Shown: in pieces, positions 1,677 through 59,962 of the stretch | Layout of the letters: each line of letters starts with the position of its first letter | Position numbering within the stretch: the stretch's first letter is position 1 | Virus record (IMG/VR): IMGVR_UViG_3300035670_000009 | Coordinates: 128,001-192,000 of that record | Length of the DNA stretch: 64,000 bases | Reading direction: 5' to 3' (one strand) | Source: a virus | Lineage: Duplodnaviria; Caudoviricetes | Program-made: the position numbers and the translations under genes | The notes under the pieces: model-generated | What the model was told of the DNA's origin: nothing | Seen by the model: only the letters and a program-made list of their open reading frames with translations | The model's database searches: none

Positions 1677-3320
1677 CTAGTCGGCAAAGCCCGCGACTTC
1701 GACAGAAATGGCGATGTCTTCTAGACCGACAAGAAAGACCGTCGTACGACCAGTCACCAGTCGCCCCGGATCATTAGGAATCGTTAACAACGTACTGTCT
1801 CGCAGGTACTGAATCGCCCCGTCCGGACGGCGAATGCGGCCAAACATATCGATGGCGCTCACGGCCTGGCGGCCCGATAGATATCTATGCGCGACGCCGT
1901 TAATGACCGAACTGTGGAGCTGGCCAGAAAATCCGATTTTTTGAATTTCCTCAACCAGGGCGAGCTTGATTGCAGCAGTGTCAATCGTCGCAGTTGTGTT
2001 TTCTTTGCGGATCGTGAAATTGATCTTCGTGAAACAAGGGACGGCCGCTTTGACGAGCACATCTGCCGACCGGCTGCGCACGTCGCGACGGTTGAGAAAA
2101 TCCTGCACGTCGTCGATAAGCGGCAGGCTCGCAGTGGTCACTGTGTAGTACGCGCGACTTTGGTTTACTACTAAGCCAGTCGACACCGTGTCGGTGTCCT
2201 CAAACTGAATGACAGCGGTCTGGTAGCGCGTGTACGCGCTTTCGGCCGTGGTTGTGATATCAGGAACGTGGTCGAGCTGGCTGAGATCTGTGCCGCGAAT
2301 ATCGTTGACAATCTCGTACCCGGTTGCCGTTTTGTCGTTCGGCTTGGTGACGCGGCGGACCTCGTAGAACCCTGGCGCTGTGTCGCGCTCCAAGGTGACC
2401 TGCCAACGTGTGCCGATCGTTCCTTCGCCAATGTAAACGGCCGTCAGCAAATGCTCTTTTTCCTGCGCGGCATAATGGGTTTGGCAATAGATATCTATTC
2501 GCCCGCCGCCCGAGACCGGAAACAAACCGTGCTGGTCACGCTGCTGCTCCGGATCGCCGCAGCCCAAAACGGAAAAATGCGGAATATTGGCGAACGCCGC
2601 TTGATTGCGAATAGCAGCTGCGTAACTTGCCCGCCCGCCAATAGTTTTAGCCGCCAGTCCAGAAGGAAGGCGGGTCAAATAATCTGCATTGCTTTCAGGC
2701 GCGGCGCCGGAAACAAAATCTACCGCCGCAAACGCCTCGCGCATGTTGTTGGGCACAAAATCTGGGACAAGTGTTGCTCCGCGGCGGATGTTCCCGGCCA
2801 CGCCGATTTCTAGCGCCTGCATGAGAATATTTATGGAATAGGTGCCGTCTCCCACAGCAATCATTTCCAATTCATCGGCACTTCTCGCGGCTGTCCCCGG
2901 CGGCACGGCAATCACGGACGCCACGGGCCGAAACTCGACGCCATCTGCCGCAAACGTGATATTGTCCGAAATCGCTGTGCTGACAGGAAGATTGAACACG
3001 ATGGTGGCCTCGCCCTTGGAACGAGTGCCGTTATTGCGTACGAGGTTGAAGTTCGACAGCACCTGGTCAACCAGCTCGGGCTCAGCCAACACCGGGTTGG
3101 CATTGATCTGCAGCAGGCTGTTACTCTGCAACACGCGATCAATGTTCTCCCGTACGGCGGCGTTAAGTGCGGCGTTAAAGTAAAGTACGAGGTCGTGAAA
3201 AACGCCCCGAGTCAGCTCGACGTCAGGGTGCTTTTCTTGCATGTACTGCGTAAACAGCGCGAACATTCGGTCGACTGTCGCGCCGTCGAGCTCGTCAAGT
3301 TTGGCAATTTCCAGGGGCAT
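1677..3320 (-). CDS. baseplate J-like (gp6-type) wedge protein
   Basis: 547 aa; gpJ-like pattern (G...SGEATIVF...TFAADGVEF; GVAGNI..G; GAAPESNADYLTRL); follows the gp25-like gene. Confidence 0.75.
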   Translation of the reverse strand: MPLEIAKLDELDGATVDRMFALFTQYMQEKHPDVELTRGVFHDLVLYFNAALNAAVRENIDRVLQSNSLLQINANPVLAEPELVDQVLSNFNLVRNNGTRSKGEATIVFNLPVSTAISDNITFAADGVEFRPVASVIAVPPGTAARSADELEMIAVGDGTYSINILMQALEIGVAGNIRRGATLVPDFVPNNMREAFAAVDFVSGAAPESNADYLTRLPSGLAAKTIGGRASYAAAIRNQAAFANIPHFSVLGCGDPEQQRDQHGLFPVSGGGRIDIYCQTHYAAQEKEHLLTAVYIGEGTIGTRWQVTLERDTAPGFYEVRRVTKPNDKTATGYEIVNDIRGTDLSQLDHVPDITTTAESAYTRYQTAVIQFEDTDTVSTGLVVNQSRAYYTVTTASLPLIDDVQDFLNRRDVRSRSADVLVKAAVPCFTKINFTIRKENTTATIDTAAIKLALVEEIQKIGFSGQLHSSVINGVAHRYLSGRQAVSAIDMFGRIRRPDGAIQYLRDSTLLTIPNDPGRLVTGRTTVFLVGLEDIAISVEVAGFAD

Positions 3321-3796
3321 TACGACACCTGTGGCAATGTTTCAATAGGAAAAACAATAGTTCTGCTTGTGCCTGCGCGACTTACAACCGTGACCCGCAG
3401 GTCGGCATATCCGGGTTGAAGAGTTGCGTTTGTCAAAATCGCCTGGTCAAAACGTTCATCGTCGGGCATTTCCTCATATTCCTCACGGCGAAGGTTACGA
3501 GTAATTTCAAGACTGGCGAGTACAAAATTAGACAACAGATCACTCTGCGTTCGCACACGGCCCTGCCGAACATCCGTCATAAAGTCACAACCCCGGTCGG
3601 GCCTGTATGGCATTGAACCACGTTCAGTCAAGAACTCTAGCGCCCACCGCTGCGCCAACTTTTGCGCACCTGTGCAAATTTTACCGCTACTGCTTTCGGC
3701 ATAAAGCGCCATGTCTTGCAGTCCGTCCGAGCGGTCTGCGACTGGTTGAAAAGCGAGGTAGTCGTATTTGCGGTTGACAAAATCTTTGAGGGACAT
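3320..3796 (-). CDS. gp25/GPW-like baseplate wedge protein
   Basis: 158 aa; TERGSMPYRPDRGCDF resembles the gp25 T..GE....P.FG motif; 1-nt overlap with the J-like gene. Confidence 0.65.
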   Translation of the reverse strand: MSLKDFVNRKYDYLAFQPVADRSDGLQDMALYAESSSGKICTGAQKLAQRWALEFLTERGSMPYRPDRGCDFMTDVRQGRVRTQSDLLSNFVLASLEITRNLRREEYEEMPDDERFDQAILTNATLQPGYADLRVTVVSRAGTSRTIVFPIETLPQVS

Positions 3797-3799
3797 GAG

Positions 3800-4267: not shown

Positions 4268-4269
4268 TT

Positions 4270-5082: not shown

Positions 5083-5091
5083 TGTTCAACC

Positions 5092-6801
5092 TCAAAATCC
5101 AAATATGCCTAAAATGCCGCCGCCACCTTGTTTTATTGCAAGCGGCGCGCCGGTCCACGGCTGCTCGTACATTGGAGGTCTCTCCGCAGAGCCGCACGTT
5201 TCGCAATTTGTAATCGTGCGCGTGTTATTTTCCTCGTTTGTTCGAATGTGCGCCAGCGCGAAACTGGTTCCAGCAGTGGCCTTTTCAGAGTTGATTACAA
5301 ACGACACCTGCGTCACCGTTGCGTATAACGAGTCGTCAGGCGCGGGCGTAAGCCAGCCGCCCGGTCGTTGGTCGCGCGGCGGGATCTCGATTTTCACGAT
5401 GCTTCCCGGCGCAATGTCAAAACGCAGCTTGCCCGACATTTCGCCATAGCGCTGGCTGAGCAGCTCGGTTTTGTACCAGTGCTCGGCGAATCTGGTGAGC
5501 GCTTTGCTTTCCTGCTGTTCCCGCAAGGCATCGTGCGGCACTAACCAATTAGGCGGCGGGGAGCCCTCACCCGTTTGCGGTTCCATTGTGTCGCCCACCG
5601 GTCGCGCCGTCGTGCCGGTTGTGCGACCGGTAAAAACGGCATCTGGCACAAAGTTCGCCATCCACCCAGGCGCTTCCTTGAGAAGTTTTAATCCCTGCTT
5701 GTCTTGATTGACTTGCAGTGGGTAATAGCCCAACGGCGCTTGCAGGCTGGGCGGCGGCGGAGTTTCACCGCCAATCTGATAGTTCGTAAAGGACGGCTGC
5801 TGGGAGTAAAAGATATCTACTGATTCCAGCAACTGCGACATGTTCGCGTTGAAATTAGCGTAACCGTACTCGTCGGCGTAAATCGTGATGTATTCTTTTT
5901 TCAACCCAGCAAAGAACGGCACAGGCAACGCGAACTCAACGCTGGGAGAAATAGCGAAAAAGAATTGCGACGCGTATTCTCCAATGAGTTTGCTCCAGTA
6001 AGTTGTGTACGCGAACGATTCAAGTGCTTCTTTGCTGATAGCCATTTGGACAGCGTACTGAATGTTGTTTGAATCAAGCCCGTTGATATCTAAAGCCAGT
6101 GGTTTGTAGTATTGTTCGCCTTTGCCGGGCATGCGCTCTAGCGCGGCTAGTGCGGCGGTGTTCGTCTCGCCGCCCGCGTCGGTCTGATAACGCGGCGACG
6201 GAAACCGCGCAATGCTTTCAAACGCGGGGCGAAGTACTTTTTTCCACATGTCTGCGCGGATGTTGGTCGGCGTAATAAGTGTGCCGTCCGGATCAATTGC
6301 AGGAACAGTAGACCACCGACCCCCGCCGGTGCCTGCGTTCGGGTCGACAATGTAATAAGCCGCATTTTGCGCCAGGTCATACGGGGCGCCGGGCTGCCAA
6401 TTGCCGTTGATCATTGACGAGTTATTCAAGTCGTCAAGCCAGTGGATTAAGTTGAGCGTGTAGTTTGACGAATTGAAAGAACGCGAATAGCCAATGCCGA
6501 TGTAAAAACCCTCAAAAATGGTGAACGTCCCGGCAGGCATCTTGTCTTCCTGCCCGTCTGTGGTTTCGATAGTCAGTGTTACTGTGGCTTTATCGCGCGG
6601 CTTCAACTGGCTTTTTACGCGGTGGATTGTTGCTTCTTCGTTCGTGTCGACGCGCCTGCCAGTGGCGACCATCATTGACGCGCAGGGAATTGAGTTCAAC
6701 CCAAACGTCGCCGAGAAAGAAATGACGTCCAGAAACTCGACGCCGCCGATTTTGGCGCTGAGCTTAAATTTTGAAACGACGTAGGGCGTGCTGAATGCCA
6801 T
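5092..6801 (-). CDS. putative baseplate hub (gp27/late control D-like)
   Basis: About 569 aa from MAFSTPY; C-terminal GKLRFDIAPGSIVKIE...LYATVTQVSFVI resembles hub C-termini; synteny. Confidence 0.5.
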   Translation of the reverse strand: MAFSTPYVVSKFKLSAKIGGVEFLDVISFSATFGLNSIPCASMMVATGRRVDTNEEATIHRVKSQLKPRDKATVTLTIETTDGQEDKMPAGTFTIFEGFYIGIGYSRSFNSSNYTLNLIHWLDDLNNSSMINGNWQPGAPYDLAQNAAYYIVDPNAGTGGGRWSTVPAIDPDGTLITPTNIRADMWKKVLRPAFESIARFPSPRYQTDAGGETNTAALAALERMPGKGEQYYKPLALDINGLDSNNIQYAVQMAISKEALESFAYTTYWSKLIGEYASQFFFAISPSVEFALPVPFFAGLKKEYITIYADEYGYANFNANMSQLLESVDIFYSQQPSFTNYQIGGETPPPPSLQAPLGYYPLQVNQDKQGLKLLKEAPGWMANFVPDAVFTGRTTGTTARPVGDTMEPQTGEGSPPPNWLVPHDALREQQESKALTRFAEHWYKTELLSQRYGEMSGKLRFDIAPGSIVKIEIPPRDQRPGGWLTPAPDDSLYATVTQVSFVINSEKATAGTSFALAHIRTNEENNTRTITNCETCGSAERPPMYEQPWTGAPLAIKQGGGGILGIFGF

Positions 6802-6802
6802 G

Positions 6803-7627
6803 TTATGCCGCAACCTCGATGTGTGTGCCGGACTGCAGTATTTCGTTGGTGCGGTAAATCGTAGCCAAAATCAATCCGCCGAGCCGGTAGATCGGATTAG
6901 GGTGGTCAAACCAGAGCTGCTTGAATGTGGCAAACGGTTCTCGGCCAGTGCCCACGCCAAACAGCTCCAGAAACAACGGCTCGCCCAAAAGCTCTAAGAT
7001 CGGCACGGCAGTGGTGAGAATGTTGCCGGGTTGGACGCGGGTATAAATCGTCCAGTCGACGGTCATCGGGGGGCGCGGCACTTGGAACGACACGCCGGTG
7101 TTGTCGAGCGGCACCGTTTGAGACAGGTCATTTAAAAACACCAGCGGCGTTGTCACGCTGTTGCTCCGCGTACCAAGCGGCGTGAGAATCGCCTCCCAAT
7201 CACCGTCAGCCGCGGTGACGCGCAGCGTAAACTCGCGAACGCTCCGGCCCCGGGCGCTGTCAGCGAACAAGTCGCCGCGCAGGAACGGCGGCTGCGCGGC
7301 GAAGCCGAAGTACTGCGTGATTACTAGTCTTTTTTCTGTTTCGTAAAACGGGCGGGCCGGTTCTGGCCAATAAGTCACGCGCGGATCGAGCGCGTAGACA
7401 AATTCTGCCAACTCGGTTTGATGTAAATGCGCCATCAGCTCACGAACACGGAAATTCAAAAAGTACCGGTCTGGCGCCGTGCCAAACAAGATCCGCCGCA
7501 CGCGCTGCAGGTACGACGGCAGCGAAAGCGGCGCGTAGTTTGCCGGGATGTATTCCTCGCCAAGTTCTTGGCGCTGATTGCTGGCGCCAGAAACGTTCAG
7601 CAGGAGAGTGCGGGCGTGGTTAATCAT
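6803..7627 (-). CDS. hypothetical tail/baseplate protein
   Basis: 274 aa, packed between the tape measure and hub genes. Confidence 0.55.
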   Translation of the reverse strand: MINHARTLLLNVSGASNQRQELGEEYIPANYAPLSLPSYLQRVRRILFGTAPDRYFLNFRVRELMAHLHQTELAEFVYALDPRVTYWPEPARPFYETEKRLVITQYFGFAAQPPFLRGDLFADSARGRSVREFTLRVTAADGDWEAILTPLGTRSNSVTTPLVFLNDLSQTVPLDNTGVSFQVPRPPMTVDWTIYTRVQPGNILTTAVPILELLGEPLFLELFGVGTGREPFATFKQLWFDHPNPIYRLGGLILATIYRTNEILQSGTHIEVAA

Positions 7628-7633
7628 GACAAA

Positions 7634-8121: not shown

Positions 8122-11100
8122 TTAAGTTCCAAACACGGGCACGCCGCCTTCTGGCGTTTCCATCGGGCGATTGCCCGTGGCGCTGAGCATTGCCTCTTGC
8201 AGGCCGCGAAGTGAAAGCGTGCCGTTGATTGAGATTTCTTTTCCTCCGCCGCCAGGCTCAGCGGCCTGCTGCGGCGGTGGGCGGTCGGCTTGCGAGGTGT
8301 TGACCGTCTGCTGCACCGCTTGCGTAGCGGCAGTCGCGGCGGGGTCTTCTTCCGTGAAAATCTTGTACGCTTCTGCCCCGAGCCCGGCGACGCCGCCAAT
8401 CACGGCACCGGCGGCAGCGCCAATACCCGCACCGACGCCAAAAAAAGGCGTGCCGATCGCGGCGCCAATTGCTGCTCCGGTCATCGCTCCGCCGCCCGCG
8501 GCGCCGAGCATACCCATCGCTTTGTCTTTGTCTGACCCTTTCTCGATGCCAACCAAGTCGCTCATCATGCTGCCGCTGGAGGCGTCGCCCGTGAGCATGC
8601 CCAAAATACCGCCCTCGATCGCGCCGCGTCCGTTTTCTGCGCCTTCAAAAGCACCAGCCACGCCTCCGAGCAAAGGCGAAAGAAACGGCGCGACTTTACT
8701 GACGGGTGCAAGAAACCTGGCGGTAGCGGCAGCCCTGGAGCCAAATGACGCGGCAGCAGAAACACCTGATACGCGGCTGGCCGCGCGGGCCGCCATGCCC
8801 GCGCCCGTAGCTACGTTGTCTGCCGTATCGAGGACGGTCTTGGCAGTAGAGGCGGCGAACTGGCCGTGATTGACGTCCTCGCCGTTAAGGGCGGCCAGGC
8901 CCGTGCTGGCGCTGTCGTATACGCTCGCGGCACTGGCGGCCGTGTTTACGGCGAACATGGCGGTGTCGATGGCGCCGCCTACCCTCGGGCCGCCAGCCTC
9001 TTCATCAGCCATAGCGGTTCGAAAAGCCGCGGCACTTTCAGGGTCGATACGTGCGTCGGCGCGGTGAAATGCTGTAGCCTGATTCACTGCTTCAGCAGTT
9101 TCTCCTTCTGCGCCAATCGTATGAAGTTGGTCGGCAGCGGCGGCTCTATTTATAGATACCGCCGTACGGCTGAAGCGCGCGGGCGAAACAATATCGCGCG
9201 CTGCTGGTTGCTGCTCGGCAGAAACTGCCGTGCGAGCTTGTTGCACAGCCGATGTAGTGTCACTCACCGCCAGTGGTTGCTGCTCGGCAGAAACTGCCGC
9301 GGCGATGTCTTGCGCCGCAGTATTTGAAATACTTGCGCCGCGTTGATTTACAGTTTCATCAGATTCTGCAGCGGCACTTTGTGTTTCGTTTTGTGCGTTA
9401 ACGTTGTTAACGTCCAACGCGCGAAAAGCGTCAAACTCTTGACCGGTCATGCGCCCGACCAATTCGTTTTCGGCTGTCTGGTTCCTGGTCGTGTTCGGCG
9501 CAGTCGTTACAGCTTCGGCAACTTGCTCTGCGGGTGTGCTTCGTGTTGCAATAGCCTCTGCGCGACTAAAACCCGCGCCAGACAAATCTGCGCGCTTGGC
9601 GTTGCGCAGGGCGTCTGCTTGCGCCATCATCTGTTCTCTTTGGCGGCGCGGAAGGCGTCTTGAGAGCTGTTCTGCTGTCACGTCGCTGGCACCGGCGACG
9701 TACTGCCGCAGCATGTCAGCGTCGCGCCCTGTGCCGCGCCCGAAAGCCTGCTCAGCTAGAGCGGTCACGCCTTCGGTCCGGGCGCTGTCGTTGGCGCCCT
9801 CATACATCCCCGTGAGAATACGTTCGGCCCGCGTGCGTTCTGTGTCGTTTCGGGCGCCCTGGTACATGTCGAGCGCAGCCCCGATTCCAGCCGCCATTTC
9901 GGGGGCGTACCGGTTCTGCATCTGGTTGATGTCTTGAACGTTGAGCAGATCTTTCGCCGCCTGTGCGCCAGAGTAATTTGGATCCTTTCCCATCTTCTCG
10001 AGTACTTCGCCACTGCGCTGAAGAAAACTCGACTTCTGGCCCATTGAGACCCGCTTCTCGCGCTCAGCCCGGTCGGCGTATTTAACGCCGTCATCGCGGA
10101 CGCGTTCCTGGCTGCTGTTGATCTGGTCATGCGCTGTAAGTTGCTGCCCGGTACGCGAGGTTACGTAGGCGTTGCTCTGCGCGGCGATGCCCGAGAGGCT
10201 TTCAATGCGCTGCCCTTCGGTCTCGCCAAACATCGCCTGACTGGCCTGCTCGGCGCGTTGCCGGGCTTGCCGCCGGGGCACGCCGCGGGATTCGTAATAT
10301 TGCGCCATCATGTCGACATGGCGCTTTTCCAAATGTTTGGCGCGGTCCTCGCTCGACATGCCGCCCGTCTCTTCAACAATGACCTGCGCGAAACCGCGGC
10401 TGAGCGCTTGCGCCATGTCGTTACGCTCGCGCTCAAAATCTTCTTCACTTTGGGCGCCTATGCCCATGAAGCCACGATTGCGCAAGGCGTCAAACCGATC
10501 ACCGGTCATCCGCCCGATCAGCTCACCCTGGATGACCTGGTTGCCCAGGTGCTTTTGCATTTCCCGCTTCTGAGCCTCTAGCTCCAGGCCCGAGCTGTAC
10601 TTTTCGGCGGTGGCGGGGTCGTAATAGAAAGAGTTAAACGTCTGTGCGTTACCGCCGGAAGCCTGGAGAATCCCCAAGGCACCCCCGCGCCCGGACTGCG
10701 CCACAATCTCAGCCAAGTTGCGCTGCTGGCCGCCAAACTCGTAGGTGCCGCCCGAACTGGGGTCGTTGTAGGCCTTCATTGCGGCCTCCAACTCAGTTCC
10801 TGCGTACATCTCCTTGTTCTGCTGGTACATCCGGTTGAGCGCGGCCATGCTCTTTCCGGCTTCGGATTTTTGCCCGCGGTAGATTCGCTCTTGAGTTTCC
10901 TGGATCGCCTCGCCCTCGGTCATGTCCCCATAGAGCTTGCGGCTGAACATTCCTTCCCGTTGCATGGCGGCCACGTTCTGCATGGTCTGCATGTTGGCCG
11001 CCATCTGCATGTGCGCCGGGGTGCCGTGCATTTGGCCCAGTGCCGTACCATGCGCGCCGATCATCGCGATGGACTCGAGATTCATGCCAGCGTCCTGCGC

Positions 11101-12240
11101 AACAAGCCGCATTTGCCGCATCGAATTCTCGACCTTGTTGGGATCTAGCCGGTCGATCGATCCCGCACTGAACTCGTCCAGCGCCTCGATGAGCGCCGAC
11201 ATGGGAGCGTCGCCAGCGCCGTTGTCGCCGAAGATCTCGCGTACAGCGTCCAGCGCGCCCATGTAATCTTTGGCGACCTTGCCAACGCGCTGGGCGTCAA
11301 CGTTGCGCGCTGACATGCCGTAACCGTCCATCTTTTCAATATCTTGGGGGCTGCGCGCGCGGGCGTCTCCTGCGTTAAACCGGTCGATCTCCTGAAAGGT
11401 GTTGTCAAGGCGCTTACGAAACTCCGGTTTGCGCGCTTCGAGCATCTTGGCCCGCTCTTCTGTCGTAGCGCTGGCGTAGTCCTCCTGTTTCAGCATCTCG
11501 CTGTGACCAAACTGCTCAGCCAGGCGGTTCATTGTTTTGTCGTCGCGCTGCGAAGCGGATATTGCGCGGACTCGTTCGGCGGGATTTAATTCGCCCAGAC
11601 TTTGCGGCAGCTGGCCGCGCTGAAATAAGTTTGTAAGCACCTCGCCAGTCTGCCCGGCCATAAAGCCGTGCATTTGGTCTATATCTGCTTCTTCCCCGTA
11701 CAGCGTCTGATACAGACCGCGAGAAAAGTCCGTCATCGATTCGGCGGTCATTCGAGTACCGCCCATCGTGTCTTTTCGAAAAAAGTTCATCTGGTTGGCC
11801 GCGTTTGCCAACGCTCCCGGGTCGCCCTGGCGCCCAAACATGAGGGCCTCCAGGTTCTCCGGCCCGACAGCCATTGCCGCGAGCGATTTGACGATGGGGT
11901 TGTTCGCGACCTGGGCGAACATGGCCGCCTGCTCGCGATTGAGATCTGTCGCTGGGGAGTCGGTTACCAGCGCCCGCAACCCGAGAAACCGCGAGGCTAC
12001 GGCGGCATTTCCCTGCTCATTGCTCGCTCCGGCCGCGGCGAGCTGGTCGCGCTGGTAGCGACTGGCAAGAAACTGGTCCGAAAGCGCCTGCGACGGGACC
12101 AGATGCGGAATGAAGTTTTGCGGGCCAGCCGCTTGTTGCAAAAGCGGCGACCCAAACATCATAAAGGTCAGCGCCATGGGGTCGTCCATGAGCGCCTGAT
12201 TCATGCCAGGAGAGTAATTGGGCGGCCGGAAACTGTTCAT
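8122..12240 (-). CDS. tail tape measure protein
   Basis: 1372 aa, Ala/Gln/Gly-rich helical, C-terminal Gly-rich hydrophobic segments; follows the chaperone pair. Confidence 0.75.
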   Translation of the reverse strand: MNSFRPPNYSPGMNQALMDDPMALTFMMFGSPLLQQAAGPQNFIPHLVPSQALSDQFLASRYQRDQLAAAGASNEQGNAAVASRFLGLRALVTDSPATDLNREQAAMFAQVANNPIVKSLAAMAVGPENLEALMFGRQGDPGALANAANQMNFFRKDTMGGTRMTAESMTDFSRGLYQTLYGEEADIDQMHGFMAGQTGEVLTNLFQRGQLPQSLGELNPAERVRAISASQRDDKTMNRLAEQFGHSEMLKQEDYASATTEERAKMLEARKPEFRKRLDNTFQEIDRFNAGDARARSPQDIEKMDGYGMSARNVDAQRVGKVAKDYMGALDAVREIFGDNGAGDAPMSALIEALDEFSAGSIDRLDPNKVENSMRQMRLVAQDAGMNLESIAMIGAHGTALGQMHGTPAHMQMAANMQTMQNVAAMQREGMFSRKLYGDMTEGEAIQETQERIYRGQKSEAGKSMAALNRMYQQNKEMYAGTELEAAMKAYNDPSSGGTYEFGGQQRNLAEIVAQSGRGGALGILQASGGNAQTFNSFYYDPATAEKYSSGLELEAQKREMQKHLGNQVIQGELIGRMTGDRFDALRNRGFMGIGAQSEEDFERERNDMAQALSRGFAQVIVEETGGMSSEDRAKHLEKRHVDMMAQYYESRGVPRRQARQRAEQASQAMFGETEGQRIESLSGIAAQSNAYVTSRTGQQLTAHDQINSSQERVRDDGVKYADRAEREKRVSMGQKSSFLQRSGEVLEKMGKDPNYSGAQAAKDLLNVQDINQMQNRYAPEMAAGIGAALDMYQGARNDTERTRAERILTGMYEGANDSARTEGVTALAEQAFGRGTGRDADMLRQYVAGASDVTAEQLSRRLPRRQREQMMAQADALRNAKRADLSGAGFSRAEAIATRSTPAEQVAEAVTTAPNTTRNQTAENELVGRMTGQEFDAFRALDVNNVNAQNETQSAAAESDETVNQRGASISNTAAQDIAAAVSAEQQPLAVSDTTSAVQQARTAVSAEQQPAARDIVSPARFSRTAVSINRAAAADQLHTIGAEGETAEAVNQATAFHRADARIDPESAAAFRTAMADEEAGGPRVGGAIDTAMFAVNTAASAASVYDSASTGLAALNGEDVNHGQFAASTAKTVLDTADNVATGAGMAARAASRVSGVSAAASFGSRAAATARFLAPVSKVAPFLSPLLGGVAGAFEGAENGRGAIEGGILGMLTGDASSGSMMSDLVGIEKGSDKDKAMGMLGAAGGGAMTGAAIGAAIGTPFFGVGAGIGAAAGAVIGGVAGLGAEAYKIFTEEDPAATAATQAVQQTVNTSQADRPPPQQAAEPGGGGKEISINGTLSLRGLQEAMLSATGNRPMETPEGGVPVFGT
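9205..9299. repeat. 26-bp perfect direct repeat (two copies 69 bp apart) within the tape measure gene
   Basis: tggttgctgctcggcagaaactgccg at 9205-9230 and 9274-9299, encoding AVSAEQQP twice. Confidence 0.9.
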
Positions 12241-12248: not shown

Positions 12249-12656
12249 CTATTTTTCAAGCGTTTCCTGTCGCCACCGTTCTTGTGCGCGCTTATAGCGG
12301 TCAATCAAGTTTCGTATTTCAGGCTTTATTGTATCTTTTTGTCCTTCAGCTTCGGGTCGCGATTGATCAATTGCGACCCACGGGTAAATCACTTTTTGCA
12401 GGTCAATAAGCGCGGTTTCCACGCGTTTTTTGACGTCCTCGTAGCTTTCTTCCGTCAAACGGCCGTGCGCAATAAATGCGAGCCAGTGCCGCTGTACAGC
12501 CTCAAACAGCTCTTCGTCATTCCTCCGCTGCATTTCTTTGATGACAAGGCGGTGGCGAATTCTCCAATAGATATCTTTGGGATCGGCTCGGGAGTAATCG
12601 ATCGCTCCCGATGCGGCGGCCCGCACCATTAAGGCCGCTAGGCGATCCCGTTCCAA
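12249..12656 (-). CDS. second tail assembly chaperone ORF (T-like), possibly translated by -1 frameshift
   Basis: 135 aa, TTG start without SD, overlaps the end of 12638..13618 in the -1 frame, precedes the tape measure gene. Confidence 0.55.
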   Translation of the reverse strand: MERDRLAALMVRAAASGAIDYSRADPKDIYWRIRHRLVIKEMQRRNDEELFEAVQRHWLAFIAHGRLTEESYEDVKKRVETALIDLQKVIYPWVAIDQSRPEAEGQKDTIKPEIRNLIDRYKRAQERWRQETLEK

Positions 12657-20929: not shown

Positions 20930-22240
20930 CTAGAAGCGCCAGAAATCGTCCTCTTCTTCCGGCGACGGCGCGGGTAGTCGTTCTTCAGTCTCGGTAATAA
21001 CAGATTCGCTGACCTCGGTTGCCAAGTCGGCTGGCAGGGCGTCGCTTGTTTCAACACCCAGCGCCGCAACAGTCCACACGAATGAGCTTTCAGCGTCTGC
21101 TGGCACGGCGGCAATGTAATCGTAATCAGGCCCCCATTCGCCCGGTTTTTCGTAAAGCACGGCGTAATCACCCGGCTCGACCCGCAGAGATTCTGTCCAG
21201 CGACCGTTTACGCGTGTCGTGGTTCCAGCGACGGCCAAATTGCGGCTAGGCAGCGCCGGGTAAGCGGCGTCAAAAACATCTTTCGGAAAAATGTAAACGT
21301 TTGCGCCCACCACGCTGTAGCCGGTCGCATCCCGGTAGGCCAGGTTGTCGACACCGCCGTAATTGTGATCGACCAGCACGGAACCGCAGCCCAAAATCGG
21401 CAAGGTCGGGCCAGGCCGTTCAGCTGGTTCGCCGCCTATTTCTATCGCATAAATAGCGTTGGTCAGCGGCACGAGGCCCATTTCGACGTCGTAAATCAAC
21501 GGTACGCCCCGGATGGCGGCGGCTACCTTGATGGAGTGAATGATCCAGCGCTCATCGCTTGCGCCATTCACCCAGATGTCATTGGTGTTCAGGGTCGGAA
21601 AACCGATGACGCGCGCGCGGGTCATGTGGTCTTTGCGGGTCGTGCCCAGGGCGTTGGTGTCCTGGTCCTCGGTGATCGTGTACGGCGCCACGTCCCAGCA
21701 CTGCAGCGGCAGGGCCGGGTGGTAGCCCACTTCAAAACCTGTGCCCGAGCAGACCGGGCAGTTGGAGTCTAAAACTTCGCCGGTGAGCTGGTCGCGGCAG
21801 CGGGTGCAGGGCCGTCCAAATCGGAAGGGCTTGATCAGGAAGCCGGAAACAGAGACGTACTTGTGACGAAGCTGCTCCTTGCGGATGATTTCGCGGGCAA
21901 TGTTCCAATCTCGCTCGGCCAGCTCGCCGAAACAAGAAACAGGCTGGCTGACATAGATATCTTTCGGCGTAGTTAGCGTCACGCGGTAATGCGTTACCAG
22001 GTCGCTACCGGCAGCGCGCCAGACGTCGTCGTAGGCGACGTACCCGTCTGTGACCGGGCCGCCGACGTTGCGCCAGTCCGCCGCGTCGTTTAACGGGGTG
22101 TTGCCATACTGGAGCTGAAAGACGTACGGACCGGGGTCGTTAAAGGTCCGCTCTAGCTGCCACCAGACCCGGGTGACGCCGCGGACCATGTGATCCACGG
22201 CCACCTGGCGGAACGGAAATAAGCGTTTAAAACTGGACAT
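20930..22240 (-). CDS. putative head closure/neck protein with zinc finger
   Basis: 436 aa; CTRC...NCPVCSGTGF motif as in neck proteins of large myoviruses. Confidence 0.6.
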   Translation of the reverse strand: MSSFKRLFPFRQVAVDHMVRGVTRVWWQLERTFNDPGPYVFQLQYGNTPLNDAADWRNVGGPVTDGYVAYDDVWRAAGSDLVTHYRVTLTTPKDIYVSQPVSCFGELAERDWNIAREIIRKEQLRHKYVSVSGFLIKPFRFGRPCTRCRDQLTGEVLDSNCPVCSGTGFEVGYHPALPLQCWDVAPYTITEDQDTNALGTTRKDHMTRARVIGFPTLNTNDIWVNGASDERWIIHSIKVAAAIRGVPLIYDVEMGLVPLTNAIYAIEIGGEPAERPGPTLPILGCGSVLVDHNYGGVDNLAYRDATGYSVVGANVYIFPKDVFDAAYPALPSRNLAVAGTTTRVNGRWTESLRVEPGDYAVLYEKPGEWGPDYDYIAAVPADAESSFVWTVAALGVETSDALPADLATEVSESVITETEERLPAPSPEEEDDFWRF

Positions 22241-22899: not shown

Positions 22900-23086
22900 G
22901 ACGTAGCCTCCTCAGCGGGCTACTGGGTAGCGCCCAGCGCGCAGCGGCTTTCCGATACAGCCGCCAATAGATATCTATTCCGCGCGTTTCACACGGTAGC
23001 GTGATACTACCGCGCCGAAACACCGCAGGGAATGCGCTCCGGTGCAAAACCCTGGGCAATTAATATGCCCGCGTTTCCGGACTTTT

Positions 23087-33384: not shown

Positions 33385-33779
33385 TAGCCCATCTTCGGGA
33401 CTTCAATCGTCACCGAGAACACAAAGTTCTTGGCGCCCGAGCCCGCCGGGGTGATCTTCAGGTAAAGATATCTTTGTGGATTTGTCGGCGTGCCGTCTCG
33501 GTTGATATAGGCCACTTCAGCGCTGTGGTCGTCGACCTTGGCCGCCGTGGGCAGCGTGATGTCGAGAATGTGAAACGCCTCAGCGGGCAACGTGCTGTTT
33601 GGCGCAGTGTCCTGTTTGCTGGTGTAGAGCGCCGCAGCGGCACCGGCATTGGCGCCGCTAGTCTGTGTCAGGCTGTAGCCGCGAATAATGCCGCGGTGCG
33701 GCACGCGAATTGGAACCACCGTCTGCGTGCCGCTCGCAGCTTCAAACGTCGTTTCGCCTGACCAAATCGTACTTGCCAT
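33384..33779 (-). CDS. hypothetical beta-rich protein
   Basis: 131 aa, tightly packed. Confidence 0.65.
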   Translation of the reverse strand: MASTIWSGETTFEAASGTQTVVPIRVPHRGIIRGYSLTQTSGANAGAAAALYTSKQDTAPNSTLPAEAFHILDITLPTAAKVDDHSAEVAYINRDGTPTNPQRYLYLKITPAGSGAKNFVFSVTIEVPKMG

Positions 33780-47949: not shown

Positions 47950-48243
47950 TCACCCCGCGTGCGGATGTTTGTGGTCGATCAGGATTTTGAGCAAGAGCGA
48001 GCACGCCTCGACGCCCTCTTCACAGCCCTCAGCGGCAAACCGGTCCCGAAGCTCGGAAACATCGAGCAGGTCGTCGACGAGCAGATCGCCCGTGACCGGC
48101 GGCGCGTCAGGCGCGACGGGATTGACCACCGGCCGCGGCAATTTGGGCAGCCTGGCCTTCAGCCGGGCATAGATATCTTTGCCGTAAGCTGCGAGGACTA
48201 CACCGGCAAAGAGAAGCAAAGCAAGAAGCTGAAACGTAGTCAT
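47950..48243 (-). CDS. small membrane-anchored protein
   Basis: 97 aa; N-terminal hydrophobic helix; SD GGAGG. Confidence 0.7.
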   Translation of the reverse strand: MTTFQLLALLLFAGVVLAAYGKDIYARLKARLPKLPRPVVNPVAPDAPPVTGDLLVDDLLDVSELRDRFAAEGCEEGVEACSLLLKILIDHKHPHAG

Positions 48244-49976: not shown

Positions 49977-51011
49977 CTAATACCCGCGGAAAAGTGGCGG
50001 CATAGCCGCATGCATCATCCCGCCCCAAAGACCCAAATCCTGGAGCTTATGTTGTGTTGCAGGAGGCAGCACCGCCAGCGCTGAAAGCGTCCGCCCGGCG
50101 ACGTTAGCCGTCGCCATTCCGACACCGGCCGAGGCAAAGCCCCGGACCACGTCGATCGGGCGAATCATGGGGGACTGCAACCCCGTGCTAATGCCGCTCA
50201 TCAATCCCGTCGCGGCAGCAGCGAGCGGGGGCGGCGTGTGCTGACCAAACGGCCCGTAAGGATCAATCATGCCCTTGTGCACGTCACGCCACAGCGCCGT
50301 GTTGAACTGCGGCACAGAGATTGTCGGCTGATTTATGCCCACGGCGTCAGGAACCATCGGATTAGCTGGATTAAAACCGTAGTTGACGACGTAGCTTTCC
50401 TTTTCGAACGGATACACAACAGGTGTGTCGTTACTGGTTATCAGACTTTTCAAGTAGGGGCGCTTCAGAGCTTGCGCATTGGCGTAGGCGTTCAGCGCGC
50501 CCACTCCCAAGCCAGTTCCGGCACCCAGGAGGCCAAGTGTTTTACTTAACCGGCCGCGGCGCCTAGCTCGCTCTGGAAACAGACGCTCAGCAAGCGCGCC
50601 GGTGCCGTAACCCAGGCCGCCCAGCATCAGCGCCGAAACAATGCCGTTTGAGAGCGGTGTCGGACCGCCCAGCGCAGCGTTGCCCAGCTCGAAGACGTGC
50701 TTTGCGCCAGGGAGCGCCGCCTGCTTGATAAGAATCTCGCGCTCCAGGTTCGGCGCCTGGCAGTTGCGCACGAAACCATAGTCGCCCAGATGCTCTCGGT
50801 AAATCGCGGCGTTTTTCTCAGGGAGCGGCGCCTTTGTCCAGAGCGTAATCGTGTTGCACTCGGCCATCCATGTCGCGACGGCCAGCGGAAGAATATCGGC
50901 AGCCAGCGCCGCTTTCTCGTGCGCAACGCGTGCCCGAGCCGCCGCAGGCAGCAGCTCGGCCACCCGCGCAGGGACCGCCTCCCACGCATAGATATCTTTG
51001 GCTGCCGTCAT
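49977..51011 (-). CDS. Gly-zipper protein with K-x-A motifs, possible internal virion protein
   Basis: 344 aa; EKAA, KQAA; LMLGGLGYGTGA, LLGAGTGLGVGA. Confidence 0.65.
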   Translation of the reverse strand: MTAAKDIYAWEAVPARVAELLPAAARARVAHEKAALAADILPLAVATWMAECNTITLWTKAPLPEKNAAIYREHLGDYGFVRNCQAPNLEREILIKQAALPGAKHVFELGNAALGGPTPLSNGIVSALMLGGLGYGTGALAERLFPERARRRGRLSKTLGLLGAGTGLGVGALNAYANAQALKRPYLKSLITSNDTPVVYPFEKESYVVNYGFNPANPMVPDAVGINQPTISVPQFNTALWRDVHKGMIDPYGPFGQHTPPPLAAAATGLMSGISTGLQSPMIRPIDVVRGFASAGVGMATANVAGRTLSALAVLPPATQHKLQDLGLWGGMMHAAMPPLFRGY

Positions 51012-53860: not shown

Positions 53861-53862
53861 GG

Positions 53863-55784: not shown

Positions 55785-55839
55785 GACGTGGGGTCCTGCA
55801 GCATTTACGTGTGCGGGTTCATTTTAGCGCCCGCGGCGC

Positions 55840-56868: not shown

Positions 56869-56871
56869 GAT

Positions 56872-57557: not shown

Positions 57558-57573
57558 GGTATTACCCTGCCCC

Positions 57574-58554
57574 TTACGTTTTCGGCTCGTAATCGAGATG
57601 CGCCATGTAACGCTCGATCTGCCGGGCCACGTCGTCCACGGTGATTAACGACATGCAGTAGGCGATCCACTGCCCGTCTTCCATCGCGACCGGGATCTCG
57701 CAAAGACTCTTGTCTTTGCCGTCTTTATCGCCCAGCGTCACGACACGGCTTTTCCAGCACCCGCCCTGGCTGCAGCAGTTGAGCATGCCGCAGGTGTGCA
57801 GAAACTGGTGACTGGGGCCCTGCTCCCAATGCGCCGGTTCGCGCCCGCCCGCAATCGTAATGTTGGCGCGATAGGCCCGCTTGAAACGCGGATGCGCGGG
57901 AACAGCGTACGCCAGGTGCATGGGAAAGCTGACACCAGAGATTACGCCGAACGAGTTGTACACAAGCCGAATGAGCTGCCGCGCGTTTGTTTTCCCCACG
58001 AAGTTCAACACATTGGGCCCTGAAAGCACAGGATGACGGTGCTCTTTAGAGCCGACTTGCGCAAACCATAGGTTAGGAAACCGCTCAACCAGCTCTTGGT
58101 AGCGCTTGAAACTCCAGGCCTTGGCCGTGTAATCCAACTTGTGCCCGGCGTTGATCACCCAATATGGCACGTCACGTTTAAGAATCTCGTGAACGCCGGA
58201 ATACCACTGAGCCTCTTGCTCAGTGATTGGCAAGAAATCCTGAAACCGACTGGAGCGGATCGGAACGCCCAGCTTTCGGCTGAGATCTTCGCTGAACGAC
58301 TCGACAAAGCGAACCGGATGAGTGTTGCTGCGGTGGATACTGGGATACTCGACCCGAATCTTTTTCACTTCGGGGTCGTTCTTGTCGAGCGGCGTGATCA
58401 GCGAATTGCCGTAAAAGATATCTTTGACCGAGCAATCGACGTCGGTAAGAAATGCGCCGGGATGCGTCTCGTGAAGACTCGTAACAGCGTGCAACAGCAT
58501 CACCAAGTCGCCCGGACTTTGAAAATTCTGAAACACGACTTTAAGCGGCGCCAT
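57574..58554 (-). CDS. glycosyltransferase family 9 (ADP-heptose:LPS heptosyltransferase-like)
   Basis: About 326 aa from MAPLK; SPGDLVML, AKAWS, NFVGKTNARQL, SFPMHLAYA. Confidence 0.75.
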   Translation of the reverse strand: MAPLKVVFQNFQSPGDLVMLLHAVTSLHETHPGAFLTDVDCSVKDIFYGNSLITPLDKNDPEVKKIRVEYPSIHRSNTHPVRFVESFSEDLSRKLGVPIRSSRFQDFLPITEQEAQWYSGVHEILKRDVPYWVINAGHKLDYTAKAWSFKRYQELVERFPNLWFAQVGSKEHRHPVLSGPNVLNFVGKTNARQLIRLVYNSFGVISGVSFPMHLAYAVPAHPRFKRAYRANITIAGGREPAHWEQGPSHQFLHTCGMLNCCSQGGCWKSRVVTLGDKDGKDKSLCEIPVAMEDGQWIAYCMSLITVDDVARQIERYMAHLDYEPKT

Positions 58555-58567
58555 GGTACTCCTGCGT

Positions 58568-59962
58568 TCACGTGAGACTGAATTGGTGTTCGATCTTGTC
58601 GGCGTTGTAAATAAACGGCCCAGCAAGCACGCCGTCTGATCTTGGCAGCATGATTGTCGCTGTTTGCCCAAGATGCGTCTTTAAAATCATCCGCTCAGCA
58701 ATAACCGTCCAGAACGTCTCATTACTGCTCGCGGGCGCTAAACGGCCGCTTGGCGTCAGTTTAGTGTCCATCAAATGAGCGCCGTCGCCGCGAAGAAACC
58801 GCACTGTCGGCGCCTGTGTAAACGCCAAGAACTTCTTTTCGGTCAAGTAGTCCAGCCACGACGTCTGCACAATATTCATTTTCGGCGTCTGCGCCAGTGC
58901 CGCCAGAAGATGAGCCCTGATCGTTGGAACGTCGAGAAAATAATCCAGTTGCCAGTGCGCAATTGCCGCGTGCTCTTCCGCAGCGGAAAACATCGGCGCC
59001 GTATCTGCGCACATCCACGTCAGCGTGGCTTCCTCTGTGTAAGGCACAATCCCGTACCTGTGCTGATGCATCTTGCGCACGATCATTTCCGTCTCGTCGG
59101 TGTAGAACCGGTCGGCGGCGCCGATGCACATCGCCAACACGCCGGGCGCGACGGCGAACACGTGCGAGCTACCTGCGCCTGTCAGCAGGCGGCAGTTGTT
59201 GAATAGCGTCGTAAGAATTTGCAGTGCCATGAAATGCGTGCCGTGCTTCCGCACCAGATCGCGCTGCATTGTTTTGTCGAGACCCGCGAGCGGCGTGCCG
59301 GACTCTTGCAACACACGCAGGCGGGCATTGAATTTACCGAACTTCTCTTTGACCTCGCACCAAAACGCGTTGCGGGGCAGCTCGTGTTTAGCGTTGAGGG
59401 CGTGAAAAGTCTCGAGGCTCGACTCCCGCAGGAATATGCGGCAGTCGCTAAATTGCGCAATCACGTGCTCAGCAGAATAGTGGCCGTAAATCGCGCGCCA
59501 CGGCGATTTGTACCGGCGGCGCGCGTCTGGAATTTTGTCCGCTGCGATTGGCAGGGCGTCCCAGGGCAGGTCGTCGTGCTTATAGATATCTTTCCAACCG
59601 GCGAGCTGGTCAAACCCTTTAGTGCTCGTCGAAAACGTCGAGAACCAGCCGAACATGGCGTCCAGCGAGCCTTTTTGCAGAATCACCGCGTCTGAAAACA
59701 TGCCAAAAAACGGCAACTGGTTTTCGTGACCGATCGAAATCAGCTTGATCTTGTGCTCGCGGCAGAACAGCGCCAGCTTGAAAAGATGTACGTTCAGCCA
59801 CGCTTCGTGATGATGCGGCGCGACGATGATGGCGCTGTCGTACGCGCGTTCTGGATAGAGATCCAGATAAACGTGAGGCCGGTCATTCCCCGGTACGTCG
59901 TACGGCGTGAACGTAGCGTCGGGAATACTGACGATTTGTTGAATTGCAGTGACTGGTAACAT
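58568..59962 (-). CDS. hypothetical protein in the glycan cluster
   Basis: 464 aa; no motif recognised with confidence. Confidence 0.6.
   Translation of the reverse strand: MLPVTAIQQIVSIPDATFTPYDVPGNDRPHVYLDLYPERAYDSAIIVAPHHHEAWLNVHLFKLALFCREHKIKLISIGHENQLPFFGMFSDAVILQKGSLDAMFGWFSTFSTSTKGFDQLAGWKDIYKHDDLPWDALPIAADKIPDARRRYKSPWRAIYGHYSAEHVIAQFSDCRIFLRESSLETFHALNAKHELPRNAFWCEVKEKFGKFNARLRVLQESGTPLAGLDKTMQRDLVRKHGTHFMALQILTTLFNNCRLLTGAGSSHVFAVAPGVLAMCIGAADRFYTDETEMIVRKMHQHRYGIVPYTEEATLTWMCADTAPMFSAAEEHAAIAHWQLDYFLDVPTIRAHLLAALAQTPKMNIVQTSWLDYLTEKKFLAFTQAPTVRFLRGDGAHLMDTKLTPSGRLAPASSNETFWTVIAERMILKTHLGQTATIMLPRSDGVLAGPFIYNADKIEHQFSLT

Follow-up and report, generated by a model that had tools for sequence, protein, structure and literature searches.

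The 64-kb window analyzed here belongs to the 203,910-bp genome (G000) of an uncultured jumbo phage. Its genes include those for a multisubunit RNA polymerase (RNAP), present as a beta/beta'-N fusion and a separate beta'-C, and approximately 96% of all genes lie on one strand. Dispersed through the window, whose GC content is 54–61%, are copies of the 12-bp palindrome AWAGATATCTWT. The original prediction did not recognize this motif, and we likewise found no described motif of that sequence in the literature. A pattern search of the window matched all 12 exact copies that had been predicted as well as a copy with one mismatch, AAAGATATCTAC (Table 1). Shuffles that preserve dinucleotides, with up to one mismatch allowed, give an expectation of 0.08 matches and a maximum of 1, versus the 13 observed. 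Nor is the motif confined to the window: the entire genome carries 39 exact copies and no copy of the reversed control pattern. Ten variant copies bring the total for the general form, WWWGATATCWWW, to 49, and the density is roughly one site per 4–5 kb. Of 80 genomic GATATC sites, these 49 are WWWGATATCWWW, and the other 31 approximate the 33.7 that composition predicts for all GATATC. Some exact sites extend, as originally described and as their flanks confirm, to palindromes of 14 bp (AATAGATATCTATT) or 16 bp (GCAAAGATATCTTTGC). The flanks are unrelated to one another; their conservation ends within about 4 bp, and they show no conserved asymmetry.

Table 1. Palindrome sites in the window (window coordinates) and the candidate reader genes (genome coordinates)
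Feature	Position	Location	Remarks
ATAGATATCTAT, exact	1877..1888	inside ORF 1677..3320 (-)	
ATAGATATCTAT, exact	2487..2498	inside ORF 1677..3320 (-)	14-bp palindrome, 2486-2499
AAAGATATCTAC, one mismatch	5809..5820	inside ORF 5092..6813 (-)	
ATAGATATCTTT, exact	12567..12578	inside ORF 12249..12656 (-)	
ATAGATATCTTT, exact	21953..21964	inside ORF 20930..22240 (-)	letter-perfect in G006 and G016
ATAGATATCTAT, exact	22967..22978	intergenic, 68 bp upstream of next minus-strand gene	14-bp palindrome, 22966-22979
AAAGATATCTTT, exact	32052..32063	inside ORF 30599..32455 (-)	16-bp palindrome, 32050-32065; kept in G006 and G016
AAAGATATCTTT, exact	33464..33475	near 3' end of ORF 33384..33779 (-)	encodes QRYLY
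TTTGATATCTTT, variant of WWWGATATCWWW	37292..37303	inside RNAP beta' C-terminal gene 36248..38122 (-)	
AAAGATATCTTT, exact	40323..40334	inside fused RNAP beta/beta'-N gene 39101..43471 (-)	16-bp palindrome, 40321-40336
ATAGATATCTTT, exact	48169..48180		kept in G006 and G016
ATAGATATCTTT, exact	50988..50999	12 nt inside 5' end of ORF 49977..51011 (-)	
AAAGATATCTTT, exact	58414..58425	inside ORF 57574..58671 (-)	
ATAGATATCTTT, exact	59582..59593	inside ORF 58568..59962 (-)	
Candidate reader gene pair, tandem	genome 90313-91032 and 91076-91576	minus strand	outside the window

Selection keeps these sites as DNA, not as protein. By our own ORF-based gene calls, 26 of the 39 exact copies are intragenic, 2 straddle a gene end, and 11 are intergenic. 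Synonymous-codon shuffles produce 0.65 intragenic copies (maximum 4 in 300 shuffles) and codon-order shuffles 0.013, versus the 26 observed, and orthologues in close relatives retain the DNA letters rather than the peptide alone. The selection on DNA that had been proposed is thus upheld. Use of all three coding frames, first noticed in the window, extends genome-wide (14, 5, and 7 intragenic copies), and relative positions within genes are spread from 0.01 to 0.93. The one window copy predicted to fall between genes, at 22967, is indeed intergenic. Genome-wide, intergenic DNA is enriched 2.8-fold in sites (12 of 39 sites versus 11%, p=8e-4). Approximately 11 of the 39 sites lie 16–120 bp upstream of a start codon, and the next start codon is between 16 and 2863 bp away from a site. 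ATAGATATCTTT occurs 16 times and its reverse complement 3 times (p=0.004), a bias that we attribute to codon constraints on a one-strand genome and that could also reflect a real polarity.

The spacing of the sites is more even than chance. The gap CV is 0.34 for the first 25 sites, which occupy the first 110 kb (p<2e-5), 0.65 for the whole genome (p=0.002), and 0.59 when all 49 sites are included. When window sites within 3 kb of each other are merged, seven clusters result, with gaps of 7.6–10.4 kb and a CV of 0.10, a value reached by random placement in 42 of 19,965 trials (p=0.002); the quasi-periodic clusters of the original prediction therefore survive a formal comparison. Among relatives, spacing is even in G006 (CV 0.60, p=1.5e-4) and G001 (CV 0.66, p=0.004) and not significantly so in G016 (p=0.06) or G002 (CV 1.09). 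An operator for a specific gene is unlikely, as had been argued, given that the sites are regularly spaced and that about two-thirds of the copies occur at arbitrary points inside genes.

The motif is enriched in 18 of the 20 relatives searched and is absent from the two outgroups with 55–56% RNAP identity. Of 31 sites aligned with G006 (75% nucleotide identity), 15 are letter-perfect versus a 7.4% background, and 23 retain the GATATC core versus 21.9% (p about 1e-9 in each case). Half-sites are AAA or ATA in G000, G006, G013, and G016. In G001, whose RNAP is 83% identical, the half-sites are ATT, TTT, or AAT, that is, ATTGATATCAAT, present at 40 sites, most of them at positions new relative to G000. 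G002 possesses a loose form, TTGWTAWCAA. Specifically, the change between lineages is from A to T beside the GATATC core, with the mirror change from T to A on the opposite arm. Eight site positions are common to G000 and G001: four are rewritten on both arms (e.g., AAAGATATCTTT to TTTGATATCAAA), two are changed on one arm, and two keep the flanking base. Otherwise the sites are not retained between these two genomes, with 1 of 22 letter-perfect despite 71% overall identity. Orthologous positions that lack the motif differ by point substitutions, with no insertion. For example, the site at 40323 is missing at the equivalent position in G006, G016, and G001, and it originated by point substitutions with no indel. 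The joint change of both half-sites between lineages, including symmetric double changes at the same position, suggests that the site is read with two-fold symmetry by a reader that co-evolves with it, consistent with the dimeric reader first envisaged.

We consider it probable, from these sequence comparisons, that the copies constitute a genome-wide array of binding sites recognized by a single sequence-specific DNA-binding protein with two-fold symmetry, a dimer. Relatives with altered motif versions make a docking site for such a two-part, whole-genome DNA-binding protein the most likely role. The reader would be encoded by the phage lineage and would co-evolve with its sites. Each site would act as a docking or nucleation point, placing the whole 204-kb chromosome within reach of one. 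Since no part of the chromosome would then lie far from a docking point, the reader would act chromosome-wide and not on single genes. Possible roles include compaction or organization, coating or protection, and global control of transcription by the phage RNAP. We also entertain, more tentatively, that the array is a spacing-controlled nucleation lattice for a new phage chromatin-like protein that would coat, compact, or insulate the chromosome, with one site per 4–5 kb kept by selection and with reader and sites switching specificity together. Such a protein would combine a helix–turn–helix (HTH) and a Lys/Ala/Pro-rich linker with a helical hairpin, which might dimerize.

Two tandem HTH proteins, encoded just downstream of a conserved motif site, are weak candidates for the reader. 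Each gene specifies a three-helix HTH domain faintly resembling the ArgR DNA-binding domain. In the predicted model, a confident HTH (residues 110-157) precedes a disordered Lys/Ala/Pro-rich linker, which we take to recall histone H1-like tails, and a two-helix C-terminal hairpin. The candidate's fold matches, to winged-helix domains of ArgR, Fur, Zur, and PadR, are generic (Z about 5); 3ere_D (Z 5.0, rmsd 2.5 Å over 51 residues) is one among many such winged-helix matches. Pfam at its thresholds returns no match for the candidate protein. Below threshold, PF01316 (Arg_repressor; 14.4 bits versus a cut-off of 27, E 0.006) has its sole six-frame match in the genome in the candidate gene. We reject the idea that the candidate is a true ArgR: the C-terminal arginine-binding, hexamerizing domain (PF02863) has no Pfam match, the linker and hairpin are present instead, and only the HTH is similar. 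A motif site lies 120–160 bp upstream of the pair in G000 and G006, and one further contig has a similar layout. Lineages differ in the latter half of the predicted recognition helix, which reads QVSVTLRDF in G000 and G006, QVSVLVKKL in G001, and QVSQLLKKA in genomes with the loose motif. The outgroup G005, which has no array, lacks the family. Counting against the candidate, the family is present in G011, a genome lacking an array, and was undetected in G003 and G007, which carry 10–16 sites. The family-library scan covered less than half of the phage proteins, so further DNA-binding proteins may exist in this phage.

An alternative that we judge unlikely is that the sites punctuate transcription into units of approximately 4–5 kb, as promoters, enhancer-like activator sites, terminators, or roadblocks for the phage or host RNAP. 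The phage-encoded RNAP, the one-strand gene arrangement, the intergenic enrichment, the sites shortly before start codons, and the orientation bias all lend themselves to this idea, as do sites directly after intrinsic-terminator-like hairpins (e.g., genome 26588) and a strand-specific form in G004, TTTTAGATATCA, that abuts terminator T-tracts and early-promoter-like elements. However, sites sit mostly within genes and at widely spread relative positions, their flanks lack the asymmetry that a core promoter needs, and a perfect dyad with co-varying arms is unexpected of a directional promoter. Moreover, the early cassettes of G000 carry a different repeated element, CTGATAGCAAAAGGAAA. Promoters of phage multisubunit RNAPs are strand-specific and fixed in upstream position, and neither property is seen in a palindrome at such variable distances from start codons. 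A site-bound regulator of transcription would, for its part, be compatible with the dimeric-reader array. Improbable, in our estimation, is an enzyme target, with the sites serving a phage nuclease or nickase, whether for T5-like site-specific nicks or for breaks that start recombination-dependent replication, or a DNA-modifying enzyme. GATATC is a classic type II site, that of EcoRV, and palindromes of this kind are recognized by dimeric PD-(D/E)XK enzymes. Among the phage genes are those for a DUF1016/YhcG-like putative nuclease (genome 44862-45836) and a RecA-like recombinase, and even spacing would suit regularly placed entry points. Against this, GATATC outside the 12-bp motif is neither avoided nor enriched, and double-strand cuts at some 45 palindromes would break the genome into pieces. 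Searches for D12, N6_N4, phage Dam, and MT-A70 adenine methyltransferases found none, the one for MT-A70 lacking an informative positive control. Judged on these methyltransferase families and on the frequency of the 6-bp site itself, an EcoRV-like type II restriction–modification target does not fit.

We assign a similarly low likelihood to a host factor, with the array recruiting or titrating a host nucleoid protein or global regulator and the motif variants mirroring different hosts. The phage reader is, after all, a candidate only, the lineages with differing variants may have different hosts, and a feature-based comparison places the candidate HTH nearest to proteins assigned mostly to Planctomycetota, so such domains occur in cells. 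Yet genomes that differ in variant are otherwise as close as G000 and G001, and only a single base pair in each arm changes while the core stays intact, a pattern that would be expected if a cognate reader were diverging. Least credible of all is that the sites lack function and arise incidentally from composition, from repeats of codons or peptides, or from a small element that is mobile or duplicated. One copy lends itself to such an account: the site at 33464, the position most widely conserved across the clade, encodes a conserved QRYLY peptide within a protein that is itself highly conserved, so constraint on the protein may contribute there and could explain that copy. For the array, the shuffle and orthologue tests refute it: dinucleotide, synonymous, and codon-order shuffles all give less than one copy, copies fall in every reading frame and between genes, flanks are unrelated, spacing is regular, and motif-less orthologous positions bear no trace of insertion.

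The dimeric-reader array, which we favor, draws together several features. Selection maintains the sites as DNA, and essential genes pay for them with AT-rich codons. Positions turn over, but the number of sites and the spacing between them stay roughly constant, and the arms co-change between close relatives. Together, these features point to a co-evolving reader that would work chromosome-wide, and they place unusually clean constraints on any explanation of dispersed phage palindromes. The natural specificity variants AWAGATATCTWT, ATTGATATCAAT, and TTGWTAWCAA, combined with a candidate protein family, make the proposal testable in vitro without culture of the host. If a reader is confirmed, it would represent a genome-scale function of large phages, be it organization, protection, or global transcription control, that current annotation misses.

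Among phages, the stoperators of Cluster A mycobacteriophages such as L5 and Bxb1 comprise dozens of sites at which one regulator silences transcription genome-wide, and the phiC31 repressor binds conserved inverted repeats across the phage genome. Stoperators are asymmetric, oriented with transcription, mostly intergenic, and found in temperate phages. In contrast, the jumbo-phage site is a perfect palindrome, about two-thirds intragenic, and regularly spaced, and its 16:3 W-position bias is explicable by codon use; we therefore reject a stoperator-type site. Among bacterial and plasmid systems, ParB–parS, Noc–NBS, MatP–matS, and SlmA–SBS are likewise replicon-dispersed palindromes read by dimeric proteins, and the multi-copy 12–16-bp palindromes typical of ParB, KorB, and Noc have their counterpart in the 39 exact 12-bp sites, some extending to 14–16 bp. 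The analogy to parS, matS, and Noc sites originally drawn holds as a functional likeness only. The ParB N-terminal (CTP-binding) domain PF02195 had no match at E<=0.1 in a six-frame search of the 203,910-bp genome, with control genomes giving matches, and neither HTH_ParB (PF17762) nor KorB (PF08535) domains matched at E<=1. Set against the copy numbers and consensus sequences of the KorB, ParB, Noc, MatP, and SlmA systems, the phage sites are approximately four times more numerous, mostly intragenic, and evenly spaced. On the IncP plasmid RK2, KorB is loaded at OB sites and, by sliding, reaches promoters at distances of up to 1.5 kb (PMC11790492). The KorB–OB system (PMC11790492) and the phage array are alike in featuring a dispersed palindrome read by a dimer that acts distantly or replicon-wide, binding being a prediction in the phage case.

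A close likeness lies with Cluster O mycobacteriophages. According to the available passages of Cresawn et al. (2015; PMC4351075), these phages carry a 17-bp dyad repeat, 5'-TGTTCGGNNNCCGAACA, in more than 30 copies throughout the genome, inside and between genes, with near-invariant arms, no consistent orientation, and no assigned function. The jumbo phage shares the pattern of more than 30 dyad repeats genome-wide, with invariant arms, both intragenic and intergenic. Homology is not indicated: the motif differs, and the 1372-aa unannotated ORF at 8122..12240 had no tblastn match in 50,697 phage records. Motif sequence, phage group, and size are unrelated, a siphovirus of approximately 70 kb versus a jumbo phage of 204 kb that encodes an RNAP, and the jumbo-phage motif, unlike the Cluster O repeat as given in those passages, has no spacer between its arms. 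The same passages make no mention of regular spacing, codon-shuffle selection, or symmetric specificity change between relatives. Our literature search found no explanation for dispersed palindromes in phage genomes; precedent for the class, dispersed dyad repeats in phage genomes, is already published (PMC4351075).

The palindrome array is a real, strongly selected feature of this phage genome. A pattern search recovers each of the 12 exact copies of AWAGATATCTWT that the original prediction had located in the window, as well as the one-mismatch copy, AAAGATATCTAC, at 5809, and some copies do extend to palindromes of 14-16 bp. When the window is shuffled 100 times with dinucleotides preserved, the mean is 0.08 matches, and never more than one. 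The motif is also present outside the window. Specifically, the whole 203,910-bp record, which has direct terminal repeats and of which the window is bases 128,001-192,000, holds 39 exact copies, versus 0 copies of a reversed control pattern. Another 10 copies vary at one position, and in 6 of these the change is A/T at motif position 3 or at its mirror, position 10. The generalised form of the motif, WWWGATATCWWW, accounts for 49 of the 80 GATATC sites in the genome. The other 31 approximate the 33.7 that base composition predicts for all GATATC; thus, the excess is confined to the extended 12-mer and does not involve the EcoRV hexamer as such. The four positions on each side of the motif are G/C-rich, with T depleted immediately outside it; GC along the window is 54-61%.

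Selection acts on the DNA itself. By our own ORF-based gene calls, 26 exact copies are intragenic, lie at relative gene positions from 0.01 to 0.93, and use all three coding frames, as proposed, in a split of 14, 5, and 7. Two copies straddle gene ends, and about 12 exact copies genome-wide are intergenic or on a stop codon, which constitutes an intergenic enrichment (12/39 sites versus 11%). Against the 26 observed, 300 trials of synonymous-codon shuffling within genes yield 0.65 copies (4 at most), and codon-order shuffling yields 0.013. In the related genome G006, which is 75% identical in aligned DNA, all 12 letters are the same at 15 of 31 aligned sites versus 7.4% of background 12-mers, and the GATATC core is intact at 23 of 31 versus 21.9% (p~1e-9 for each). 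At orthologous places where relatives lack the motif, ordinary GC-rich codons occur with no indel (e.g., ATAGATATCTTT versus GTAGGTGTCCTT), and thus copies arose by point substitution rather than by insertion. The codon shuffles and the letter-perfect G006 sites bear out the original prediction of DNA-level selection, and none of the three outcomes it had named as contrary (similar counts in synonymous shuffles, codons lost in orthologues, absence elsewhere in the genome) is observed. We note that two convergent genes have one copy placed exactly between their stop codons, and that several further copies overlap stop codons, as TAG within ATAGAT or TGA within TTGATA.

The sites are regularly spaced. 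Gaps between the first 25 exact sites (1.5-110 kb) are 1.8-7.9 kb, with a mean of 4.5 kb and a CV of 0.34, and 0 of 50,000 random placements are as even. Over the whole circle, the CV is 0.65 for exact sites (p=0.002) and 0.59 for all 49 sites (p<1e-4); a 20-kb gap between exact sites (110-130 kb) holds two one-mismatch copies. The quasi-periodic clusters seen in the window hold up as well: merged into 7 singlets or doublets, they lie 7.6-10.4 kb apart, more evenly than under random placement (CV 0.10, p=0.002). Among relatives, the sites of G006 (CV 0.60, p=1.5e-4) and G001 (CV 0.66, p=0.004) are likewise even, those of G016 have a CV of 0.77 (p=0.06), and those of G002, which has a loose form of the motif, are not even (CV 1.09). 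G001 sites that are not shared with this phage lie a median of 747 bp from one of its sites versus ~920 bp for random positions, a difference that is not decisive.

The array is restricted to one clade. WWWGATATCWWW occurs at 20-31 copies per 100 kb in this phage (G000) and in G006, G016, G013, G014, and G001, at 19 in G010, and at 1-11 in the other relatives (73-79% RNAP identity), values still far above the chance expectation of ~0.3 per genome. Two outgroups have zero copies. Within the clade, the arms of the palindrome vary with dyad symmetry. Half-sites beside the GATATC core are AAA or ATA in 88 of 98 cases in this phage and mostly so in G006, G016, and G013 (the AWA type); in G001 they are ATT, TTT, or AAT in 69 of 80 cases, giving the motif (CTC)ATTGATATCAAT(GAG), and G002 has the loose TTGWTAWCAA form. 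At 71% nucleotide identity to this phage, G001 is just slightly more distant than G006, yet of 22 aligned sites only 1 matches in every letter, no more than background. The two genomes nevertheless share 8 site positions. Both arms are rewritten at 4 of these, e.g., AAAGATATCTTT to TTTGATATCAAA (genome 192105) and ATAGATATCTAT to ATTGATATCATT (31638); 2 are altered on one arm, and 2 have the core-adjacent base unchanged. That both arms change at the same base pair, throughout the genome and at positions that are conserved, is expected of a two-fold symmetric reader (a protein that recognises the motif) whose specificity has altered. Neither a directional signal nor chance explains such change easily.

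The array is carried by a jumbo phage of 57.7% GC with, by our ORF-based gene calls, 201 of 210 genes on the minus strand. Its RNAP is divided into a beta/beta'-N fusion and a separate beta'-C protein; phiKZ-like phages have separate beta and beta' halves, so the split here differs. The window also contains the tail sheath gene, and, among the virion and RNAP genes, a matrixin-like protein and a PAS-domain protein. DnaG-like, DnaB-like, and RecA-like proteins are encoded elsewhere. The sole long plus-strand gene is probably the GpA-type terminase large subunit, judging by synteny with related contigs. Just 42% of the length of the SF2 helicase is covered by alignments to relatives, suggesting that an intein or a homing endonuclease has inserted in this genome alone. 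One window protein was searched by tblastn against phage GenBank records and had no match; IMG/VR holds 44 related loci with RNAP identities of 55-86%.

Coordinates of features in the phage genome and, in the last line, in the relative G011
Feature	Position	Strand	Size or content
131-aa protein, no family	window 33384..33779	-	131 aa
RNAP beta'-C, separate protein	window 36248..38122	-	624 aa
RNAP beta/beta'-N fusion	window 39101..43471	-	1456 aa
Matrixin-like protein	window 48294-49103	-	PG_binding_1 + Peptidase_M10
PAS-domain protein	window 52428-53099	-	
Terminator-like hairpin elements	genome 11893-19028 (L061)		6 elements
Tandem inverted-repeat units, early region	genome 18517-18607 (L061)		23-bp units, GACTGC..GAGAGCAGTCG
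Family-A DNA polymerase	genome 50876-54238 (L063:12876-16238)	-	1120 aa; N-terminal uracil-DNA-glycosylase-superfamily (UDG-like) domain
SF2 helicase	genome 57785-60544 (L064:785-3544)	-	LAGLIDADG domain mid-protein
Candidate reader gene pair	genome 90313-91032 + 91076-91576	-	
Probable terminase large subunit	genome 93749-95719	+	
Motif copy between convergent genes (the probable terminase and a minus-strand gene)	genome 95720-95731 (L066:720-731)		
Ferritin/Dps-like gene	genome 197953-198420 (L068:6953-7420)	-	155 aa
Coding tandem repeat, G011	G011:C1:44309-44700 (L118)		~16 units of 18 nt

Other repeats and outliers exist in these genomes. In the early region, each of the six hairpins precedes, on the minus strand, TTTCCTTTTGCTATCAG and a TAAATA-type element, an arrangement that resembles early cassettes of the sigma-70 type. 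Within TTTCCTTTTGCTATCAG, the stretch TTGCTATCA is similar to a palindrome half-site; the equivalent element in the relative G004 is TTTTAGATATCA, and the strand-specific TGATATCTAAAA of G004 belongs to early promoter/terminator cassettes. The nearby tandem units, each an inverted repeat, start 6 bp from the motif copy at 18500. The sequence TTGCGCAA is over-represented about 5-7-fold in most relatives (whole records of G000, G001, G002, G004, G010, and G011; 21 versus 2.8 expected in G000), but it lacks even spacing and probably reflects composition or codon use. The coding tandem repeat of G011 (CTAGAGCTTGATAC; unit CTAGAGCTTGATACAAGG) is unrelated to the palindrome. Finally, the 131-aa protein contains the most widely conserved motif site and is the genome's strongest identity outlier of its kind: it is 95-97% identical among G000, G006, and G016 and 53-55% in G001, G002, and G004, versus 84-90% and 62-79%, respectively, for its neighbours. 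Its pI is neutral, and it is probably structural rather than a DNA-binding reader.

The search for a reader yields one tentative candidate. Pfam and PHROGs scans of ~85 proteins (18 in the window, the rest elsewhere) reveal no DNA-binding family, and most proteins have no family at all. Genes immediately downstream of intergenic sites (thymidylate kinase, ferritin/Dps-like, others) include no obvious reader; the site 61 bp upstream of the ferritin/Dps-like gene is occupied in G006 too and, in shifted register, in G001. The genes that the strict-motif genomes G000, G001, and G006 share, and that G002 and G004 lack, were set aside; most form an ADP-heptose/glycosylation set. The candidate is a tandem gene pair in which an HTH-like stretch, IRPRDIIAALEEQGVKVTAPQVSVTLRDF, was spotted by eye. 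None of its 44 homologues has a Pfam domain, and one carries the source name "arginine repressor." In the family alignment, an acidic N-terminal region precedes a near-invariant HTH core (RPRD..I..L, QVSV), which a Lys/Ala/Pro-rich linker joins to a conserved segment at the C-terminus. Only two parts of the AlphaFold model are confidently predicted, namely, a three-helix HTH (residues 110-157) and a hairpin of two helices at the C-terminus. Structural neighbours are winged-helix/HTH DNA-binding domains, including ArgR-DNA (3ere_D, Z 5.0), Fur, Zur, and PadR, with none standing out, and a profile search against PDB sequences returned nothing significant. The candidate HTH is the sole six-frame match in the whole genome to Pfam Arg_repressor, albeit below cut-off (E 0.006, 14.4 bits). 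A motif site lies upstream of the pair, at 120 bp in G000 and 159 bp in G006, and one further contig has a similar layout. Moreover, the latter half of the predicted recognition helix tracks the motif variant, reading TLRDF where the motif is of the AWA type, LVKKL in G001, and QLLKKA where the motif is loose. Counting against the candidate, G011 has a member of the family and no array, and G003 and G007 retain 10-16 sites with no family member detected. We regard its identity as the reader as possible but doubtful.

From sequence, the array is best read as sites at which a dimeric DNA-binding protein, of tentative identity, binds throughout the genome, with protein and sites co-evolving. The reader would probably be phage-encoded, and its docking sites would be spread so that every part of the chromosome lies within a few kb of one. 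If the candidate is correct, its basic, H1-like linker would suit a protein that nucleates at the sites and coats or compacts the DNA. Intergenic enrichment and the terminators near some sites leave room for a global role in transcription; that the sites are themselves promoter or terminator signals is, however, unlikely, because many lie inside genes, no asymmetric flank accompanies them, and their arms co-vary as a dyad.

Even less probable is a nuclease, nickase, or modification target: the phage encodes a putative YhcG-like nuclease, but searches of the genome for D12, N6_N4, Dam, and MT-A70 methyltransferases were negative. We give similarly little credence to sites for a host factor. The notion that the copies are a by-product without function is refuted by the shuffle and orthologue tests and merits virtually no weight.

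Arrays bound by dedicated proteins provide functional analogues of the one proposed here, namely, ParB-parS, Noc-NBS, MatP-matS, SlmA-SBS, and the stoperators of Cluster A mycobacteriophages. Stoperators are asymmetric and oriented, unlike this motif. The predicted analogy to parS, matS, and Noc sites is at most functional and does not extend to membership of the ParB/KorB family; searches of the phage genome for ParB N-terminal, HTH_ParB, and KorB domains had no match. Another functional analogue is KorB-OB of plasmid RK2, where dispersed palindromes serve as loading sites for a clamp whose effects reach distant DNA (PMC11790492). The closest published parallel is the 17-bp dyad repeat of Cluster O mycobacteriophages, which is present in >30 copies within and between genes, has invariant arms, and is of unknown function (PMC4351075). 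Our literature search on this motif and on dispersed palindromes found nothing specific. To this kind of dispersed dyad repeat, the present case adds a negative ParB/KorB result alongside a candidate reader of a different sort, codon-aware and orthologue tests, regular spacing reproduced in relatives, and sites rewritten at shared positions, on both arms in half of them.
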